From: an uncultured Bacilli bacterium
Lineage (GTDB): Bacteria > Bacillota_I > Bacilli_A > RF39 > UBA660
Assembly (NCBI GenBank): GCA_944363735.1
Contig: CALVVB010000002.1
Location: forward strand, 16,349-80,348
DNA: 64,000 nt
Reading direction: 5' to 3'
Of this stretch, positions 3,048 through 54,601 are shown in pieces (the stretch's first letter is position 1; the number at the start of each line of letters is the position of its first letter). The notes below the pieces were generated by a model, which had not been told where the DNA came from, ran no database searches, and worked only from the letters and a program-made list of their open reading frames with translations. A program made the position numbers and the translations under genes.

Positions 3048-3113
3048 ACTATCAGTCCTTTACGTAACATATTCTATCATAAATATAGTAAATAAAAAAG
3101 AGGATTAGTTTTA

Positions 3114-5378
3114 TTATTCTTCCTCTTGATTATCTAATTTTACTAATACTTCTCTTGGCTTAGAACCATTAGGAGGTCCAATAATACCTCGTTCTTCTAA
3201 TAAGTCAATGATACGAGCTGCTCTATTATAACCAAGTTTAAATCTTCTTTGTAATAGTGAAGCACTAGCTTTACCAGTCTCTATAACAAACTCTACTATC
3301 TCATTATATAATGGATCATCATATTCTTCAGCTTGAGCCATATCTTCTTTTTGAGAAGCACTCTTTTCACTATCTCCTGATAAGTTCATAAAGGCCTGAT
3401 CATACTCTGCTTTTTGTTGTTCAATTGTATAATCAATAATTCTTTTAATCTCATCATCAGAAATATAGGCTCCTTGAATACGTTCTGGATCTGCTTCTCC
3501 CATTGGTAAGAATAACATATCACCTTTACCTAGAAGTTTTTCTGCTCCTGTCATATCAATGATTGTACGTGAGTCGATACTACTAGAAACAGCGAATGAG
3601 ATACGACTTGGAATATTCGCTTTTACAACACCAGTAATTACATCTGTTGATGGTCTTTGCGTAGCGATAATTAAGTGAATTCCGGCGGCACGGGCCATTT
3701 GGGTAATTCTCATAATAGATGCTTCTACATCTTTACTTGCAACTAACATAAGGTCTGCTAACTCATCTATAATTACAACTATAAATGGCATCTTCTTAAT
3801 TTGTTCATCAGGTGGCAATGTTTTATTTTTCTTTTCAACATAATCATTATAAGTTGCAATATTTTTAGTTTTAGTCTCACTAAAAGTATCATAACGTCTT
3901 TCCATCTCAGCAACTATCTTAGATAGTGCTACACTTGCTTCTTTAGGATCAGTAACAACTGGTCTCATTAAATGAGGAACACCATTATAACCAGAAAGTT
4001 CAACTTTTTTAGGGTCAACCATCACAAGTTTTACTTCATCAGGCTTTGCCCTCATCAAAATAGAACAAATAATACCATTAATACAAACAGATTTACCTGA
4101 ACCAGTAGATCCTGCTACTAAAAGATGGGGTGTTTTATTAATTTCACACCAAATAACATTACCCATAATATTTTTACCTAAAGGACAAAGTAGTTTGGCA
4201 TTATCTAAAGACTTAGGAACTTTTTCTAATACTTCCCTAAAGGAAACAGGAGCTGTTTCTTTATTAGCGATTTCTATACCTACTGTATTTTTACCAGGAA
4301 TAGGTGCTTGAATTCTAACATCTTTTGTCGCTATTGCTAAAGCTATTTCTCTATGAATTGATAAAAGTTTACTAACTTTAGTACCAGAATGAAGTTCTAA
4401 CTCATATTGAGTAACTGTAGGACCAATATGTACTTCTACTACTTTTCCAATAATATTAAAGTCTTTTAGTACTTTTTCAAGTATTTCTATATTCTTTTCA
4501 ATTAAACTTTGATTAACACTGTTTTTCTTTTTTTTAGGTTGATCTAATATATTAATAGATGGTAAGACATAGTTATGTTTAATGGATACTTTATTAGAAG
4601 AATCTATATTTTCATTGTTAGCATCATTATTATCAGATACTTCTTCATTGACTTTAGATCTTGTTAATTGATCGATACTAGATATGACGATTCTCTTATC
4701 ATCATCTTTTACTTCGCCAAGTACAGGTTCTTCATTTCCTGTAATAATAGGTTTCTTACTATCATTTTCTTCTTCGATATTATTTTTATCTTTTCTAGGA
4801 AACTTCTCTTTAGCAGCCTTTGCCTTATCTTTGACAAAATCAACAATAGAGAATCCTGTAAATAAACAGAACCCTATAACTATCAAAGTCCAAGCGATTA
4901 TCTGCATACCTCTATATGAGAAAAGTAACATAAATAAAACTCCAAAGGTACAACCAATAATACCTCCACCAATAGCATTAGGTCTAGCTCCTTTCATAAC
5001 ATCTGAAAAAGAGTTGATTAACTGATTAGTAGTTTCACTAAATACTTTTATAGCATTACTATCATTTTCTAATATAAAGTTTTCATGCATCAAGACAAGC
5101 AATCCTATAACTAACAAATAAATACCTAACATTTTAGTTGTAAATAAGTTAGGCCAATTTCTATTTATAATTAAATATGCTCCAATCACTAATAAGACAA
5201 CTAATAAAACATTATAAAATACTCCTACAAGAAATATTGAGAAGGATGCAATCATATTACCTACAGGACCATATCTACCAATACCAAGTATTGCTGCTAA
5301 AACAAGTAATACTCCATATAATTCTGTAGAATGGGCGAAGCCTTTCTTAGTTTCCTTCTTTTTCTTTCTTTTTGCCAT
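3114..5378 (-). CDS. ftsK: DNA translocase FtsK/SpoIIIE
   Basis: Polytopic N-terminus, a low-complexity linker, Walker A GSTGSGKS, Walker B VVIIDELADL and a C-terminal gamma winged helix (LLQRRFKLGYNRAARIIDLLEERGIIG). The likely start is ATG 5378 behind GAAGG; the track's first codon is GTG 5387. Confidence 0.95.
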   Translation of the reverse strand: MAKRKKKKETKKGFAHSTELYGVLLVLAAILGIGRYGPVGNMIASFSIFLVGVFYNVLLVVLLVIGAYLIINRNWPNLFTTKMLGIYLLVIGLLVLMHENFILENDSNAIKVFSETTNQLINSFSDVMKGARPNAIGGGIIGCTFGVLFMLLFSYRGMQIIAWTLIVIGFCLFTGFSIVDFVKDKAKAAKEKFPRKDKNNIEEENDSKKPIITGNEEPVLGEVKDDDKRIVISSIDQLTRSKVNEEVSDNNDANNENIDSSNKVSIKHNYVLPSINILDQPKKKKNSVNQSLIEKNIEILEKVLKDFNIIGKVVEVHIGPTVTQYELELHSGTKVSKLLSIHREIALAIATKDVRIQAPIPGKNTVGIEIANKETAPVSFREVLEKVPKSLDNAKLLCPLGKNIMGNVIWCEINKTPHLLVAGSTGSGKSVCINGIICSILMRAKPDEVKLVMVDPKKVELSGYNGVPHLMRPVVTDPKEASVALSKIVAEMERRYDTFSETKTKNIATYNDYVEKKNKTLPPDEQIKKMPFIVVIIDELADLMLVASKDVEASIMRITQMARAAGIHLIIATQRPSTDVITGVVKANIPSRISFAVSSSIDSRTIIDMTGAEKLLGKGDMLFLPMGEADPERIQGAYISDDEIKRIIDYTIEQQKAEYDQAFMNLSGDSEKSASQKEDMAQAEEYDDPLYNEIVEFVIETGKASASLLQRRFKLGYNRAARIIDLLEERGIIGPPNGSKPREVLVKLDNQEEE

Positions 5379-45078: not shown

Positions 45079-47316
45079 TTAATAATAAAATATATTTAAA
45101 TCAACATTACCAGTAATACCAGGGAGACTACCAGAAGAAGTATATTGCCATCCTCTATGTGGTAAAGTATATCCACAATCTCCGTTAGTATAATGTGCTA
45201 TCCAATCAACCATACTTCTTGTATTATCATTAAATCTTGTCATTGCATAATTTAAATAAGTATAAACTTTAGCATCATAACCTGCTGCTTTAAGACGATT
45301 AATATAATTATAAACCATCCCTTCATAAGCTTCCTTAGATATATCATCAGAACTTTCATTTTGACTTGGAATACTATAACTCTCAATATCATAATAAATT
45401 GGATAATCTGGACTAACATTATATCTATTAAGCATTTGAATCGTAGCATTAGCTTCAAAAATAGCTTCAGCAGGATTATGAGCATAACTATATAAATAAA
45501 CACCATAAGGAATATTTAAACGTTTTACATTACTTAAATATTCAGAAAATTTTATATCTTCATAACCATTATAACCAATTCTTAAAATAACTCCATCAAT
45601 TTCTCCAGAATTCCACAAAGTATCCCAATCAATATTTCCTTGATGATAAGATACATCTGCTAATCTTTTAAAGTTCTGTTCACGTAAAACTCCATCCTGA
45701 TTAAAGCGATACCAAACACCATGAATTTTTTGAACTCCAGTTGCCATACTACCATCATAATTGTAATAATATGTATTACCATTTATAGTTTGAAAACCAG
45801 TTTGAATAACACCGTTTTCATCAAATTTATAAACACGACCATCAATTGTCTGAATACCTGTTTGAATGATACCTTCTTGATTAGTATAATATATATATCC
45901 TGTTAATGAATGTACCCAACCAATTTGAATTTTTCCAGAAAGCTCACCTAAAAAATATCTTTGACCATCTATTGACGTAATACCTTTCAATATTTTTCCA
46001 TCTTGATCAGTATAGTAACGATCTCCCGTTAAGGCAGAGGTTACAAAGCCTACTTGAACTTTTCCTGTATACTCTCCTAAGAAGTAATCTTCCCCATCTA
46101 TTTCTGTAATTCCATATTGCTTTACACCCAAAATATAATAATAACGATCTAATCCTATATCATAAAATCCTTCAATTAAACTTCCATCTTCTAAAGTATT
46201 ATAAGTATTACCGTCATATTCAAATTCACCTTTATAAATTTTTCCATCTTCATCTGCATAATAATACTTATTATTTAAACTTGATTGAACAAATCCAGTC
46301 TGAATTTTTCCTGTATACTCTCCTAAAAAGTAATCTTCTCCATCTATCGGAGTAATACCTTTCAATATTTTTCCATCTTGATCAGTATAGTAACGATCTC
46401 CCGTTAAGGCAGAGGTTACAAAGCCTACTTGAACTTTTCCTGTATACTCTCCTAAGAAGTAATCTTCCCCATCTATTTCTGTAATTCCATATTGCTTTAC
46501 ACCCAAAATATAATAATAACGATCTAATCCTATATCATAAAATCCTTCAATTAAACTTCCATCTTCTAAAGTATTATAAGTATTACCGTCATATTCAAAT
46601 TCACCTTTATAAATTTTTCCATCTTCATCTGCATAATAATACTTATTATTTAAACTTGATTGAACAAATCCAGTCTGAATTTTTCCTGTATACTCTCCTA
46701 AAAAGTAATCTTCTCCATCTATTGGCGTAATACCTTTCAATATTTTTCCATCTTGATTAGTATAGTAACGATCTCCCGTTAATGAAGAAGTTACAAAACC
46801 TACTTGAACTTTTCCTGTATACTCTCCTAAGAAATAATCTTCTCCATCTATTTCTGTAATACCTTTAACTAATTTACCATCAGAATCAAAATAATAAGTC
46901 GCTCCATCAATAGAAACAAATCCCTTTTGTATTTTTCCATCCTGATTAGTATAATACACATCTCCTGTTAACGAAGAAGTTACAAAACCTACTTGAACCT
47001 TTCCTGTATACTCTCCTAAGAAATAGTCTTCTCCATCTATTGGAGTAATACCTTTCAATATTTTTCCATCTTGATCAGTATAATAACGATCTCCTGTTAA
47101 TGAAGAAGTTACAAAACCTATTTGAACTTTTCCTGTATACTCTCCTAAGAAGTAATCTTCTCCATCTATTTCTGTGATACCTTTTTGTATTATTCCGTCC
47201 TTATAATAATAAAGTGAACCATCTTCTTCAAAAAAACCAGTTTTACCTAAAGCATTAACATTTAAAAACACCAAACTAATTGCAACTAAAACAACAAAAA
47301 ATATCTTTTTTTTCAT
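45079..47316 (-). CDS. secreted cell-wall-binding-repeat protein with C-terminal GH25 muramidase
   Basis: 745 aa. Signal peptide and about 25 repeats of roughly 20 aa of the GxxYYxDxDGKxxKG type (CW_binding_1). The C-terminal ADVSYHQGNIDWDTLWNSGEIDGVILRIGYNG... is GH25-like. Confidence 0.85.
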   Translation of the reverse strand: MKKKIFFVVLVAISLVFLNVNALGKTGFFEEDGSLYYYKDGIIQKGITEIDGEDYFLGEYTGKVQIGFVTSSLTGDRYYTDQDGKILKGITPIDGEDYFLGEYTGKVQVGFVTSSLTGDVYYTNQDGKIQKGFVSIDGATYYFDSDGKLVKGITEIDGEDYFLGEYTGKVQVGFVTSSLTGDRYYTNQDGKILKGITPIDGEDYFLGEYTGKIQTGFVQSSLNNKYYYADEDGKIYKGEFEYDGNTYNTLEDGSLIEGFYDIGLDRYYYILGVKQYGITEIDGEDYFLGEYTGKVQVGFVTSALTGDRYYTDQDGKILKGITPIDGEDYFLGEYTGKIQTGFVQSSLNNKYYYADEDGKIYKGEFEYDGNTYNTLEDGSLIEGFYDIGLDRYYYILGVKQYGITEIDGEDYFLGEYTGKVQVGFVTSALTGDRYYTDQDGKILKGITSIDGQRYFLGELSGKIQIGWVHSLTGYIYYTNQEGIIQTGIQTIDGRVYKFDENGVIQTGFQTINGNTYYYNYDGSMATGVQKIHGVWYRFNQDGVLREQNFKRLADVSYHQGNIDWDTLWNSGEIDGVILRIGYNGYEDIKFSEYLSNVKRLNIPYGVYLYSYAHNPAEAIFEANATIQMLNRYNVSPDYPIYYDIESYSIPSQNESSDDISKEAYEGMVYNYINRLKAAGYDAKVYTYLNYAMTRFNDNTRSMVDWIAHYTNGDCGYTLPHRGWQYTSSGSLPGITGNVDLNIFYY
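45977..46726. repeat. tandem duplication, 2 x 375 bp, inside the CW-binding repeat region
   Basis: Read directly: 45977-46347 is base-for-base identical to 46352-46722 (offset 375 bp, 125 codons). Flanking repeat units are clearly more diverged. Confidence 0.9.
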
Positions 47317-49230: not shown

Positions 49231-49850
49231 CATCAAATCCGAATACTGAAAAAATGAATACTCCCCGCAGCAAGCTACGGGGTATCTTCCCAAAGCGATG
49301 TTATTTTTGCTGTTGAAATTTCAAATATAACTGCTTGTATTCCGCATCTTGTTTACCTTGATTTTTTACATATTCTTTTATTACCGATTCATTTTGATTT
49401 TTTCCTACTGTAGCCACAAAATAACCGTCTGACCAAAACTGTCCTCCCCATAGTTGTTTCTTTACTTGAGGACATTCGACAAAAATTTGTCTTGCTGTTA
49501 TACTTTTTATTATTTTCACTATTTTACTAGGTGCATAGTTTGGTGTGCTTTGAACTAGAAAATGTACATGATCTTTATCCGTACCTATTTCTAGAAAAAC
49601 AATATAATCATAACGTTTCTCTATCTCAAGACAAATTTGTCGAAGATGTTCATCCACTGTTTCATCAAATACTACACGACGGTATTTTGCTGGACATACA
49701 ATGTGGTAAACAAGATTGCTTACGTTGTGCGACAAATATAGATATTGACTATCTCCCATAACATCGCCCTCACTTCGTATTTATAATACTACGTTCGGCC
49801 TTACGTTGCAAGCAACGGGGAATTAAACCCTAGACTAATAACCATACACT
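49231..49850 (-). mobile_element. IS200/IS605-family insertion sequence (tnpA only); boundaries approximate
   Basis: A Y1 transposase ORF is flanked by similar subterminal hairpins, CCCCGCAGCAAGCTACGGGG (49263-49282) and CGTTGCAAGCAACGGGG (49804-49820). Homology to the paralogous SGNH leader stops near 49230. Confidence 0.7.
49301..49759 (-). CDS. tnpA: IS200/IS605 family Y1 transposase TnpA
   Basis: 152 aa. LVYHIVCPAKYRRVVF, the HUH motif DHVHFLV, and the catalytic-Tyr region SDGYFVATVG. Confidence 0.9.
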   Translation of the reverse strand: MGDSQYLYLSHNVSNLVYHIVCPAKYRRVVFDETVDEHLRQICLEIEKRYDYIVFLEIGTDKDHVHFLVQSTPNYAPSKIVKIIKSITARQIFVECPQVKKQLWGGQFWSDGYFVATVGKNQNESVIKEYVKNQGKQDAEYKQLYLKFQQQK

Positions 49851-49873: not shown

Positions 49874-49898
49874 AAAAAACTTGACATATTTTGCCAAG
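49874..49898 (-). terminator. intrinsic terminator after rfbB (hairpin element copy 1)
   Basis: Minus strand CTTGGC-AAAATAT-GTCAAG followed by TTTTTTC, starting directly after the TAA at 49899-49901. Confidence 0.6.
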
Positions 49899-53240: not shown

Positions 53241-53302
53241 AATACTTCCCCTTTTCATACCAATATGAGTATAACATAAATATTTGTACTTTTACATTGA
53301 AA

Positions 53303-53329
53303 GAAAAAAACTTGACATTATTTGCCAAG
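53303..53329 (-). terminator. intrinsic terminator with the toxin stop codon in its loop (hairpin element copy 2)
   Basis: Minus strand CTTGGC-AAATAAT-GTCAAG followed by TTTTTTTC. The TAA at 53318-53320 lies in the loop. Confidence 0.6.
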
Positions 53330-53788
53330 TTCTTCAAGCATCATCTCTTTAATTTTATCAATATCAGGAAAAAACAAATTAACTCCTTGTTTCTTTAAAG
53401 ATAATAAGTAATTAAAATTGCTAGTTATTTCATCTTTTAATGTATCTATTACTTTAAGTGGTTTACCATTTATTATATGAGGATGATCTATATATTTTTC
53501 TAATGTAGGAAAAGCATTTTGTAATAATATAACTGATTTTTTATTGGCAATTTCTCTTATCATTATAGAACGACAATCTCCATATTTTTTAACCTTTTTA
53601 TCTATTATAGGTTGATATTTAGAAACTTTACTACTTAACGGAATAAACCATAATATATCCTTGTCTTTAATTGTAAAGTAAGTAGGTCTAGTTCTTCCAT
53701 TTTCATGATTTATCATTAAACCTTTGTCATTAATCTTATCAAAGAATTCATCTTTTATATGATAAATATATCCTGTTTGGACCTTCAT
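53318..53788 (-). CDS. type III toxin-antitoxin system toxin (ToxN/AbiQ/CptN-like endoribonuclease)
   Basis: 156 aa starting at ATG 53788, which lies 8 nt after GGGGGGTG. The pattern MKVQTGYIYHIKDEFFDKINDKGLM..N...RPTYF....ILWFIPLSSKVSKYQ...ILLQNAFP resembles the RP...(F/Y)xxPLSS...NxxP layout I recall for AbiQ/ToxN/CptN toxins. The gene is preceded by tandem repeats and a terminator. Family membership was not computed. Confidence 0.7.
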   Translation of the reverse strand: MKVQTGYIYHIKDEFFDKINDKGLMINHENGRTRPTYFTIKDKDILWFIPLSSKVSKYQPIIDKKVKKYGDCRSIMIREIANKKSVILLQNAFPTLEKYIDHPHIINGKPLKVIDTLKDEITSNFNYLLSLKKQGVNLFFPDIDKIKEMMLEELGK

Positions 53789-53879
53789 TTTATAAGCACC
53801 CCCCAATAAAAAATATAACTTGTAACTAAAATATATCAAATTATAACTATGTTTGCAAGTACAAAAGTTTGATTTTTAG

Positions 53880-53917
53880 AAGAAAAAGAAAACTTTATTC
53901 AAAAGAACAAAGTTTTC
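53880..53917 (-). terminator. intrinsic terminator/attenuator between antitoxin repeats and toxin ORF
   Basis: Minus strand GAAAACTTT - 12-nt loop - AAAGTTTTC (a perfect 9-bp stem) followed by TTTTTCTTCT. Confidence 0.8.
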
Positions 53918-53920
53918 AAA

Positions 53921-54030
53921 CATTTTCGATCGGAATAATTTATATCCCGCACCATCCGAGAGCGGTTAACATTTCACGATTGGAATAATTTATAACCCGC
54001 ACCATCCAAGAGCGGCTAACATGTACATAT
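53921..54030 (-). ncRNA. putative type III antitoxin RNA: about 2.1 tandem 50-nt repeats
   Basis: 53927-53976 and 53977-54026 are direct repeats with 43 of 50 positions identical. A partial unit (acatttt) lies at 53920-53926. The repeats form a GC-richer island in AT-rich DNA, between a strong promoter and a terminator, on the same strand as the toxin. Confidence 0.7.
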
Positions 54031-54052
54031 TACATTTCTTAAATGCAATACT

Positions 54053-54081
54053 AATATACTATATTTTGACATAAATGTCAA
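54053..54081 (-). promoter_or_regulatory. sigma-A-type promoter for the repeat-toxin transcript
   Basis: Minus strand TTGACA (54081-54076), a 17-nt spacer, then TATATT (54058-53). The -35 is half of a perfect 16-bp palindrome TTGACATAAATGTCAA (54066-54081). Confidence 0.65.
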
Positions 54082-54155
54082 TAAGTATACATTTATATTA
54101 TATTCACATATTTAAGAAATATAACTGTTTTTATGGTTAAAATAGTAACTAAAAG

Positions 54156-54176
54156 ACTTGATATTATTTACCAAGT
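54156..54176 (-). terminator. hairpin element copy 3, with the stop codon of the 145-aa ORF in its loop
   Basis: Minus strand ACTTGGT-AAATAAT-ATCAAGT followed by CTTTT. The loop is identical to copy 2, and the stem carries a compensated C:G to T:A change. Confidence 0.5.
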
Positions 54177-54601
54177 CCCTTTTCTTCCCTAAACAGGCTT
54201 TCATCAATTGTTATATCTTTATCACTACCAGTTACCTTACTCAAATAGTAACGGTATTTATCATTATCTATCTTTTCATAACCATCAGTATATAATTTAT
54301 TTAGCACTTCATCATCTGTACCAAATTGTTTATAGGTTAAATCTGCTAAATAATAATTACCATCATCATCTGGTACTAAAACAAATCTATGTTTATAATG
54401 AAATTCTAAATCATCAGTATCTACTATATAAGCAAGACATGACATGTCTTTTAGATTCTCATATAAGTACCAATTATATACTAAACACATTCTCTCATGC
54501 TCTAATCCATCTAAGTCACTTTTAGTATTTTCTATCGCTTTTCTAATAACAGTTTCTTTATTTATATTAGCAATATTAAGCATTCTATCATATAATGTCA
54601 T
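54164..54601 (-). CDS. hypothetical protein, possible transglutaminase-like Cys-His-Asp fold
   Basis: 145 aa. ERMCLVYNWYLYENL ... HRFVLVPDDDGNYYLADLT resembles the C...H...D core of transglutaminase-like cysteine peptidases. The start ATG lies 1 nt after the ppdK stop (TAATATG). Confidence 0.4.
   Translation of the reverse strand: MTLYDRMLNIANINKETVIRKAIENTKSDLDGLEHERMCLVYNWYLYENLKDMSCLAYIVDTDDLEFHYKHRFVLVPDDDGNYYLADLTYKQFGTDDEVLNKLYTDGYEKIDNDKYRYYLSKVTGSDKDITIDESLFREEKGLGK

Follow-up and report, generated by a model that had tools for sequence, protein, structure and literature searches.

A predicted CptIN-family type III toxin–antitoxin module with two antitoxin repeats on the chromosome of an uncultured gut Bacilli lineage

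Our references for CptIN, a family of toxin–antitoxin systems of type III, were the description of the cptIN family (Blower et al., 2012; PMC3401426), in which repeats of 40–48 nt in 1.9–3.4 copies were tabulated, the Eubacterium rectale system CptIN-Er (PDB entry 4RMO; Rao et al., 2015; PMC4627078) and the NCBIfam model NF047359; three experimentally validated CptN toxins differ among themselves at 35–44% identity (PMC4627078). Three other type III systems invite comparison: ToxIN (Pectobacterium atrosepticum and Bacillus thuringiensis; PF13958), with ToxI units of 34–36 nt in up to 5.5 copies and 3:3 heterohexamers built on triplex-stabilised pseudoknots; AbiQ/antiQ (Lactococcus lactis; PDB entry 4GLK), with few repeats in a Gram-positive host; and TenpIN (Photorhabdus luminescens and relatives; PMC12283969), with few long repeats (39–57 nt, about two copies) that are non-identical in some loci. 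Here we describe a 0.8 kb minus-strand stretch within 64 000 nucleotides of DNA (the window) from the chromosome of an uncultured gut Bacilli lineage similar to Candidatus Onthousia, and predict that it is, very probably, a complete CptIN-family module. On the minus strand, on which all cassette coordinates are given, the elements follow one another as promoter, leader, two repeats and a partial third, terminator, ribosome-binding site (RBS) and an open reading frame (ORF) of 156 amino acids, and the promoter, repeats, terminator, RBS and ORF are all kept across about 75 related loci. The layout is the canonical one of type III systems, where the terminator keeps transcription of the toxin below that of the antitoxin, and the order of promoter, about two tandem repeats, terminator and toxin is that of CptIN-Er; the ORF list of the window has no ORF of at least 40 amino acids within the repeat region. 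At the level of sequence the assignment is supported by these parts and their conservation, by the toxin's place in the CptN family and by an RNA that is homologous to CptI-Er and shows base-pair covariation. How the transcript is processed and exactly where it is cut, the stoichiometry of the complex, and the toxicity of the protein and its neutralisation are proposed by homology to the described systems.

The toxin gene cptN (53318..53788, minus strand) begins with ATG and encodes 156 amino acids plus a stop, as had been proposed in a first-pass annotation of the raw sequence, and its product is predicted to be a sequence-specific endoribonuclease. The protein matches NF047359 (type III toxin–antitoxin system CptIN family toxin, an equivalog model) with E = 1e-45 and 155.3 bits against a cutoff of 90, residues 6–150 spanning positions 1–150 of the 150 in the model. 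According to phmmer, the only real match among solved structures in the PDB is CptN of E. rectale (4RMO; E = 1.5e-17, residues 6–150 against 5–153), so that the homology runs over the full length, with 35% identity over 142 aligned positions. A profile search of the PDB with alignment A3 also returned 4RMO, with E = 1.4e-50, but this match is circular because the CptN-Er sequence was in the alignment, and we do not count it; AbiQ (4GLK) reached only E = 0.81 in the same search. No Pfam family matched the toxin at E ≤ 1, ToxN_toxin (PF13958) included, and PADLOC gave no convincing match (AbiQ, E = 0.008, 14.5 bits). The first-pass annotation had noted a resemblance to ToxN, AbiQ and CptN alike; it holds for CptN, but there is no PF13958 match and AbiQ is marginal.

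Relatives for comparison came from a scan of species-representative genomes, which found 344; the best 80 of the 344, 69–99% identical, were used with two further loci from viral-contig collections (IMG/VR), L081 and L082, giving 82 loci that are cited here by L numbers. In the published active site of CptN-Er, residues Ser51, Lys56 and Gln90 correspond to Ser52, Lys57 and Gln90 in the window protein, all three invariant in 77 close relatives, while Ser52 corresponds to Ser53 (Ser or Thr in these relatives), Arg53 to Lys54 (Lys or Arg) and Ser85 to Ser85 (mostly Ser). The Ser–Ser catalytic pair and the invariant Lys57 and Gln90 are therefore shared with CptIN-Er, and positions of catalysis and of RNA contact are retained. 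The differences are Lys54 for Arg53 and His104 for Tyr104 (His is invariant in the clade), and Asp81, which falls on Ala81 or Asn82 depending on the alignment and is not conserved. Among 51 sequences (the window protein and 50 diverse family representatives), Lys54 (25/51) and His104 (31/51) are the majority states, so that the window protein is a typical CptN and not an outlier. The idea that it might found a divergent new sub-family finds no support in this comparison, at least not in any strong sense: its 35% identity to CptN-Er lies within the spread of the validated toxins and its catalytic residues are the family majority states. In the CptIN family as already known, the cassette is one more member; it does not represent a system of a new kind.

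The CptN family comprises 997 clusters at 50% identity (E ≤ 1e-3), and the listed homologues are about 151–164 amino acids long, mostly 153–156. A gene call with a start 17 codons too early had been expected; the ORF list does hold a 173-amino-acid TTG-started version of the toxin ORF, but neither the lengths of the homologues nor the window's own protein, which is already in public collections at 156 amino acids, bear this out. The charge that such loci normally go unannotated was fair, as no Rfam family covers the RNA and the relatives, where they carry public names, are called hypothetical or uncharacterised despite the NCBIfam model. The 90%-identity cluster returned for the window CptN has elongation factor P as its representative and many elongation factor P members, a clustering or look-up artefact. 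Cluster members of 186 amino acids had been taken for over-long gene calls, a reading that was rejected when the sequences fetched turned out to be elongation factor P.

The antitoxin half of the module is a tandem array upstream of the toxin gene, detected by Tandem Repeats Finder (TRF) at 53919–54026 with a period of 50, 2.2 copies and 86% matches, in agreement with the two 50 nt direct repeats and partial unit seen at first reading; the array is also the GC-richer island that had been pointed out (36–39% against 17–27% in the flanks). Unit 1 (53975..54024, minus strand, 50 nt, ACAUGUUAGCCGCUCUUGGAUGGUGCGGGUUAUAAAUUAUUCCAAUCGUG) has stem S1 as CCGC/GCGG and stem S2 as UUGGA/UCCAA, and unit 2 (53925..53974, minus strand, 50 nt, AAAUGUUAACCGCUCUCGGAUGGUGCGGGAUAUAAAUUAUUCCGAUCGAA) has S1 as CCGC/GCGG and S2 as UCGGA/UCCGA; the two are 91% identical over 46 nt and differ in S2 by one compensatory pair. 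The partial third unit (53913..53924, minus strand, AAUGUUUGAAAA) overlaps the terminator stem and carries the third copy of the AAUGUU junction motif, which is kept in 68 loci; this copy would be the 3′ processing site of unit 2. Almost all of the 82 loci have exactly two copies of the core motif GGATGGTGCG ahead of the toxin gene, spaced at 48–50 nt, and almost all likewise have two full units and a partial one. With TRF the array showed up in no more than about a third of the relatives, the divergence between copy 1 and copy 2 being too great elsewhere; a search for the core motif brought out the rest.

We counted base pairs for an H-type pseudoknot in alignment A1, which consists of 100 distinct repeat units. 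Stem S1 (columns 10–13:25–28) is paired in 100% of the units, and its pair 10:28 is U–A in 52 and C–G in 48, with no mismatch. Stem S2 (columns 17–20:41–44) is paired in 99–100%, with double-sided changes at each pair (CG57/UA42, GC93/AU5/UA2, GC93/AU6 and AU77/GC23), and a further pair, 16:45, forms in 66%; the outer S1 pairs 8:30 and 9:29 were dropped for poor pairing support. Overall 84.8% of the cells are paired, compared with 27–47% when the partners are slid by 1–3 columns, and none of 500 shuffles reached the observed covariation score. The covariation thus supports an H-type pseudoknot for the cptI repeat, in both of its stems. Within the loop, A32, A34, A35 and A39 do not vary in A1. 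A search of Rfam at E ≤ 10 gave chance matches only, and no Rfam family covers the repeat RNA.

To judge by alignment, the repeat RNA is homologous to CptI of E. rectale. The 45 nt CptI-Er sequence, AAGUUUACCACUGACCGAUAUGUGGUAUAUAAAUGGUCGGGUUGA, was taken from a primer in Table 2 of Rao et al. (2015) (PMC4627078). Global alignment of unit 2 with it scores 38, against 11.7 ± 5.4 for shuffles, of which 0/2000 reach 38, and both RNAs have the same order of elements: 5′ tail, S1, S2, S1′, long loop, S2′ and 3′ tail. Both form an H-type pseudoknot in which L1 is short and the long loop is rich in A and U; within that loop the motif AUAUAAAU (AUAUAAA) is identical, and A32 and U33 of the window unit correspond to A29 and the 'kink' U30 of CptI-Er, which are essential for antitoxicity (PMC4627078). 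At 50 nt the window unit is longer than the 45 nt of CptI-Er, the extra bases being about two in the 5′ tail and one each in the 3′ tail, in the long loop and where the 5′ arm of S2 passes into the 3′ arm of S1, and its S1 has only four conserved pairs. The copy number of 2.2 fits the range tabulated for cptIN in 2012, and units in the clade are 48–50 nt long. Each of the two units has the junction motif AAAUGUU on either side, three copies in all with the one between them shared, and as in CptIN-Er the A-rich junction adjoins a GUU-containing 5′ tail. CptN-Er cuts UUGA^AAGUUU, from which we infer an A^AAUGUU-like cut here that would release RNAs of 49–50 nt.

The sigma-70-type promoter (54053..54081, minus strand) has a −35 hexamer TTGACA at 54081–54076, a 17 nt spacer and a −10 hexamer TATATT at 54058–54053, and matches 11 of the 12 consensus positions, the best match in the region. 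As a class, promoter-like matches are at chance level in this AT-rich region (16 found, 14.6 expected), but the promoter that the first-pass annotation had placed here is credible because 69 of the 75 related loci keep an equivalent, TTGAC[A/T]-17-TATA[T/C]T, 17–33 nt upstream of their first repeat unit. A GTATAC(T) palindrome (54085–54090, minus strand) adjoins the −35 hexamer upstream and is kept in many loci, distant ones included; it might serve as an operator or an UP-like element, or mark the cassette's left edge. A short leader hairpin, GCAUUU..AAAUGU (54031..54046, minus strand), is possible at low confidence in the stretch from the −10 box to repeat 1; inverted repeats of the GCATT..AATGC type, varying in sequence, stand at the leader position in most relatives, as judged by eye with pairs not formally counted.

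The intrinsic terminator (53878..53917, minus strand) lies between the antitoxin array and the toxin gene and consists of a hairpin at 53917–53888 followed by the U-tract TTTTTCTTCT. It had been described as a perfect 9 bp stem; the hairpin and its U-tract are there, but the stem is of 11–13 pairs, one of them G–U (11 bp and −9.9 kcal/mol for the hairpin). Two terminator-like sites were found in the region, against 0.2 expected, and 73 of 75 relatives have a hairpin with TTTTCTTTT, whose stem sequence varies among them; in those loci the hairpin and UUUUCUUUU come after the partial third unit. The RBS, GGGGGGUG (53797..53804, minus strand), stands 8 nt upstream of the ATG and is read as GGGGGGTG at 53804–53797, as had been claimed, and a GGAGG-like RBS precedes the ATG in all 13 loci sampled. 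In the window clade the stretch from terminator to RBS (53805–53878, minus strand) is longer by about 55 nucleotides, giving a terminator-to-ATG distance of 94–102 nt compared with 25–49 nt in other loci; besides the window, the insertion is present in L001–L015, L017, L021, L029 and L037. It holds a tandem repeat of 21 nt × 2.1 (TRF; 53807–53849) and two promoter-like pairs of hexamers, TTGCAA-17-TATATT with TG (53858–53830) and TTGATA-16-TATATT (53839–53812), such matches occurring at chance frequency in AT-rich DNA.

Set beside the other type III families, the first-pass reading of a type III RNA-antitoxin cassette with a ToxIN-type layout in the cptIN style agrees with the NF047359 and 4RMO matches, the CptI-Er alignment and the pseudoknot covariation. 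With ToxIN the locus would share a repeat-array RNA processed by its own endoribonuclease, a pseudoknot and a terminator that sets the ratio of the two components; the lack of a ToxN_toxin match at E ≤ 1 separates the toxins, and the shorter and more numerous units, the heterohexameric assembly and a proven abortive-infection (Abi) phenotype also set ToxIN apart. AbiQ/antiQ has the same type III layout, few repeats and a Gram-positive host, but the E values of 0.008 and 0.81 make the window toxin a distant superfamily echo and not a member. TenpIN resembles the window's clade in its few long repeats and in having non-identical copies; its toxin belongs to another sequence family, since only CptIN scores meaningfully for the window toxin in NCBIfam, and TenpIN has a demonstrated Abi phenotype. 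Like CptIN-Er, the locus is chromosomal and comes from gut Firmicutes, although the host belongs to an uncultured Bacilli lineage and not to the Lachnospiraceae.

If the module works as its relatives do, a strong constitutive promoter would drive transcription of a short leader and 2.2 tandem 50 nt cptI repeats. Most transcripts would end at the intrinsic terminator, so that the RNA antitoxin would be in excess over the toxin, and read-through would give the cptN mRNA. CptN, as a ToxN/Kid-like endoribonuclease, would cut the precursor at the A-rich junctions (A^AAUGUU-like) into two RNAs of about 49–50 nt, each forming an H-type pseudoknot with S1 of 4 bp, S2 of 4–5 bp and the A/U-rich loop AUAUAAAU docked in the S1 minor groove. 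By analogy with E. rectale CptIN, each RNA would bridge two toxin monomers, and the 2:2 complex would be closed and inactive, the 3′ end of the RNA lying in the active site. If transcription stopped or the RNA were degraded, the labile RNA would be lost and free CptN would cleave cellular RNAs and arrest growth.

Several observations weigh against the CptIN assignment or its details. The locus is known from sequence alone. Both residues with which CptN-Er reads the scissile adenine, Asp81 and Tyr104, are different here, so that the cut-site specificity may differ. The AlphaFold2 models are poor, with pLDDT values of 44.9 (single sequence) and 40.8 (51 close homologues), and the ToxN/Kid-like fold, a twisted antiparallel beta-sheet with helices on its flanks, is therefore proposed from homology. 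The covariation pools both copies from related loci, whose cells are not independent events, and the 50 nt unit exceeds the 40–48 nt range given for cptIN in 2012 (PMC3401426). Finally, the promoter-like hexamers of the insertion between terminator and RBS would, if active, transcribe the toxin without the antitoxin and uncouple the two.

The genomic setting bears on what the module is for. The best 80 of the 344 relatives come mostly from metagenome-assembled genomes of uncultured gut Bacilli or 'Tenericutes', Candidatus Onthousia included. In the window the cassette lies on the downstream side of ppdK, in what had been called an empty gap; the position is right, but a 145-amino-acid ORF (orf145; 54164–54601, minus strand) directly follows ppdK and lies between it and the cassette. 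This ORF is kept at the same position in related genomes with 64–95% identity and has no Pfam match and no meaningful NCBIfam match. Around the cassette lie ppdK, orf145 and genes for a GDSL lipase, a GtrA-like protein and surface polysaccharides, a housekeeping and surface-polysaccharide setting and not a defence island. The cassette is downstream of ppdK in about 25 of 80 loci, including genomes with PpdK only 53–77% identical, and is also found in other genomic contexts and in several copies per genome. In the syntenic comparisons dS is 1.2–3.0 for cptN and 0.8–1.6 for ppdK, both saturated, dN is 0.06–0.17 and 0.23–0.30, respectively, and dN/dS is 0.03–0.09 and 0.16–0.33, ratios that the saturation of dS and codon bias in ppdK may distort. 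The low values for cptN indicate strong purifying selection on the toxin, stronger than on PpdK, and in all of the distant genomes with synteny (L007–L074) conservation of the toxin exceeds that of PpdK, for example with 88% against 73% identity in L016 and 83% against 63% in L074. Between the window and L001, on the other hand, dS is 0.024 for cptN and 0.355 for ppdK, which suggests a recent recombinational exchange of the cassette. Relatives are present on 15 plasmids and two mobile-element-like contigs, and no phage record, curated phage genomes included, carries a CptN relative. Near the CptN relatives of the two viral-contig loci are SpaA-type adhesin and LPD28 domains (L081) and amidoligase and GGACT genes (L082), contents that one would sooner expect in a conjugative or integrative element than in a structural module of a phage.

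The same parts and mechanism might have been selected for abortive infection: a phage that stops host transcription or degrades CptI would free CptN, which would kill the cell before phage release. The sister families ToxIN, AbiQ and TenpIN are proven Abi systems (PMC3401426), the low dN/dS of the toxin relative to PpdK and the retention of the cassette downstream of ppdK in deeply diverged genomes suggest a benefit to the host rather than pure selfishness, and several genomes have multiple or tandem copies, as is often so for defence genes. However, the E. rectale and Ruminococcus torques systems protected against none of six coliphages tested, nor did CptIN-Er protect against any in a set of more than 200; what was shown instead was plasmid stabilisation (PMC3401426, PMC4627078); PADLOC has no convincing match, the neighbours are not a defence island and no phage record has a relative. 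We regard a defence role as possible but less likely than not, and the abortive-infection label is unproven for this locus as for CptIN in general. Purely selfish addiction, or stabilisation of the local genome, in which loss of the module kills the cell and no other benefit exists, seems to us a little less likely still. In its favour, CptIN-Er stabilises plasmids (PMC4627078), relatives occur on plasmids and mobile-element-like contigs, a recurrent hairpin stands on both sides of the cassette, which is found in several contexts, the dS values against L001 point to a recent exchange, and the decayed copies of L010–L014 keep the antitoxin array with a truncated toxin, as addiction theory predicts. 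The very low dN/dS and the syntenic retention over saturated synonymous divergence exceed the usual effect of addiction, and premature stops in about 6 of 82 relatives mean that loss of the toxin is tolerated yet rare.

Two further readings deny the locus an active antitoxin or toxin. A decaying or inactive remnant, with an inactive toxin and relic repeats, has precedents in the relatives that are pseudogenised (L003, L017, L045, L071, L076 and L082) or have a truncated copy (L010–L014), but we consider it very improbable here, where the ORF is full length with all of the family-conserved catalytic residues, dN/dS is low, the promoter, terminator and RBS are intact and conserved and both repeat copies hold the pseudoknot through compensatory changes. 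The repeats might also be a cis-acting leader or attenuator only, not a trans-acting antitoxin, since they sit in the 5′ leader of the ORF with a terminator at the end, as in riboswitch and attenuator leaders. This is the least credible of the readings: no Rfam family matches, the unit's homologue CptI-Er works in trans, in the form of one processed repeat (PMC4627078), and two tandem, independently folding pseudoknots with conserved junctions are the signature of a processed array and not of an expression platform.

In this clade the two repeat copies are often quite distinct from each other. Among the 68 loci with 50 nt units that were compared, copy 1 is nearest to the copy 1 of another locus in 65 and copy 2 to another copy 2 in 67, while the identity of copy 1 to copy 2 within a locus averages 78% (range 66–94%; 91% in the window). 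A typical copy 1 in the clade has S1 as CCGC/GCGG and S2 as UUGGA/UCCAA, and a typical copy 2 has UCGC/GCGA and CCGRG/CYCGG, so that each copy keeps its own pseudoknot. By their nearest-neighbour pattern the two copies appear to have been distinct for long in this clade. A 2025 survey describes the toxIN and cptIN repeats on record as mostly perfect and non-identical repeats as a peculiarity of tenpIN (PMC12283969), and the 66–94% identity in this clade differs from that description. One might suppose that cptIN of this clade encodes two non-equivalent, position-specific antitoxin RNAs, that the inactive complex is possibly an asymmetric CptN2–CptIa–CptIb and that the module possibly has a host-beneficial, near-core function rather than a selfish one; we think this improbable, if worth stating. 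In its favour are, for the antitoxins, the position-specific copies across the clade, each with its own compensatory changes, and, for the function, the retention downstream of ppdK and a purifying selection stronger than on PpdK.

A reading of raw sequence without tools was able to recover what is predicted to be a complete type III locus, whose RNA half goes unreported by annotation pipelines and is covered by no Rfam family. The locus adds a large, well conserved CptIN clade, with 344 species-level genomes matched, and the covariation gives independent comparative support for the pseudoknot of the single CptIN crystal structure. The new points are modest: units that at 50 nt are longer than the reported 40–48 nt, copies that appear long distinct and a toxin under stronger purifying selection than PpdK. 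To our knowledge this is the first indication that cptI repeat copies can be long-lived and non-identical, which bears on the co-evolution of toxin and RNA and on the need for both copies.

A recurrent hairpin surrounds the cassette. The 20 nt hairpin CTTGGYAAATAATRTCAAGT followed by a T-run has three copies in the window (53310–53329, 54156–54175 and 49879–49898), compared with 0.08 expected. The 3′ copy, with its T-run (53303..53329, minus strand, CTTGGCAAATAATGTCAAGT), has the cptN stop codon in its loop, the upstream copy (54156..54175, minus strand) has the stop codon of orf145 in its loop, and at the third (49879–49898, minus strand) the stop codon of an rfbB-like gene abuts the hairpin. 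The first two bracket the 846 bp cassette as a 40 nt direct repeat, 78% identical. The C-terminal tail of cptN after '...MLEE' varies with the genomic context, so that the right junction of the cassette seems to lie within the last cptN codons. The hairpin is best read as a recurrent terminator-like element and a candidate recombination site. The notion that the hairpins mark an IS200/IS605-type or integron-like cassette was set aside, since L009 has the hairpin at the ends of polysaccharide genes of an ordinary kind. The third copy is followed, about 120 nt downstream, by a 152-amino-acid ORF (49301–49759, minus strand) that looks, on reading its sequence, like an IS200/IS605-type TnpA.

Tandem cassettes are present in L010–L014 (about 3105–3700), where orf145, the hairpin, a window-type promoter, two repeats and a terminator are followed by a 5′-truncated cptN remnant and then by a complete cptIN with a diverged repeat 2; the first antitoxin array has outlived its toxin. 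In L041 (−446 to −317 from the ATG), L069, L047, L067 and L075, extra or displaced cptI arrays lie 340–450 nt upstream of the toxin gene. No second toxin match was found beside those arrays, which are possibly orphan antitoxin arrays from decayed tandem cassettes. Premature cptN stops (63–145 amino acids) occur in L003 (133 amino acids), L017, L045, L071, L076 and L082; the repeat array is still detectable in the first five, and L082 has only one degenerate core motif. Elsewhere in the window, weak tblastn matches to CptN at 45961–46683 (E ≈ 0.5) were rejected as spurious, as they fall inside a repeat-rich ORF of 745 amino acids (45079–47316, minus strand). The N-terminal two-thirds of this ORF are near-identical repeats of about 20 residues, followed by a distinct C-terminal domain, and to the eye the ORF resembles cell-wall-binding-repeat proteins that have a lysozyme-type domain.

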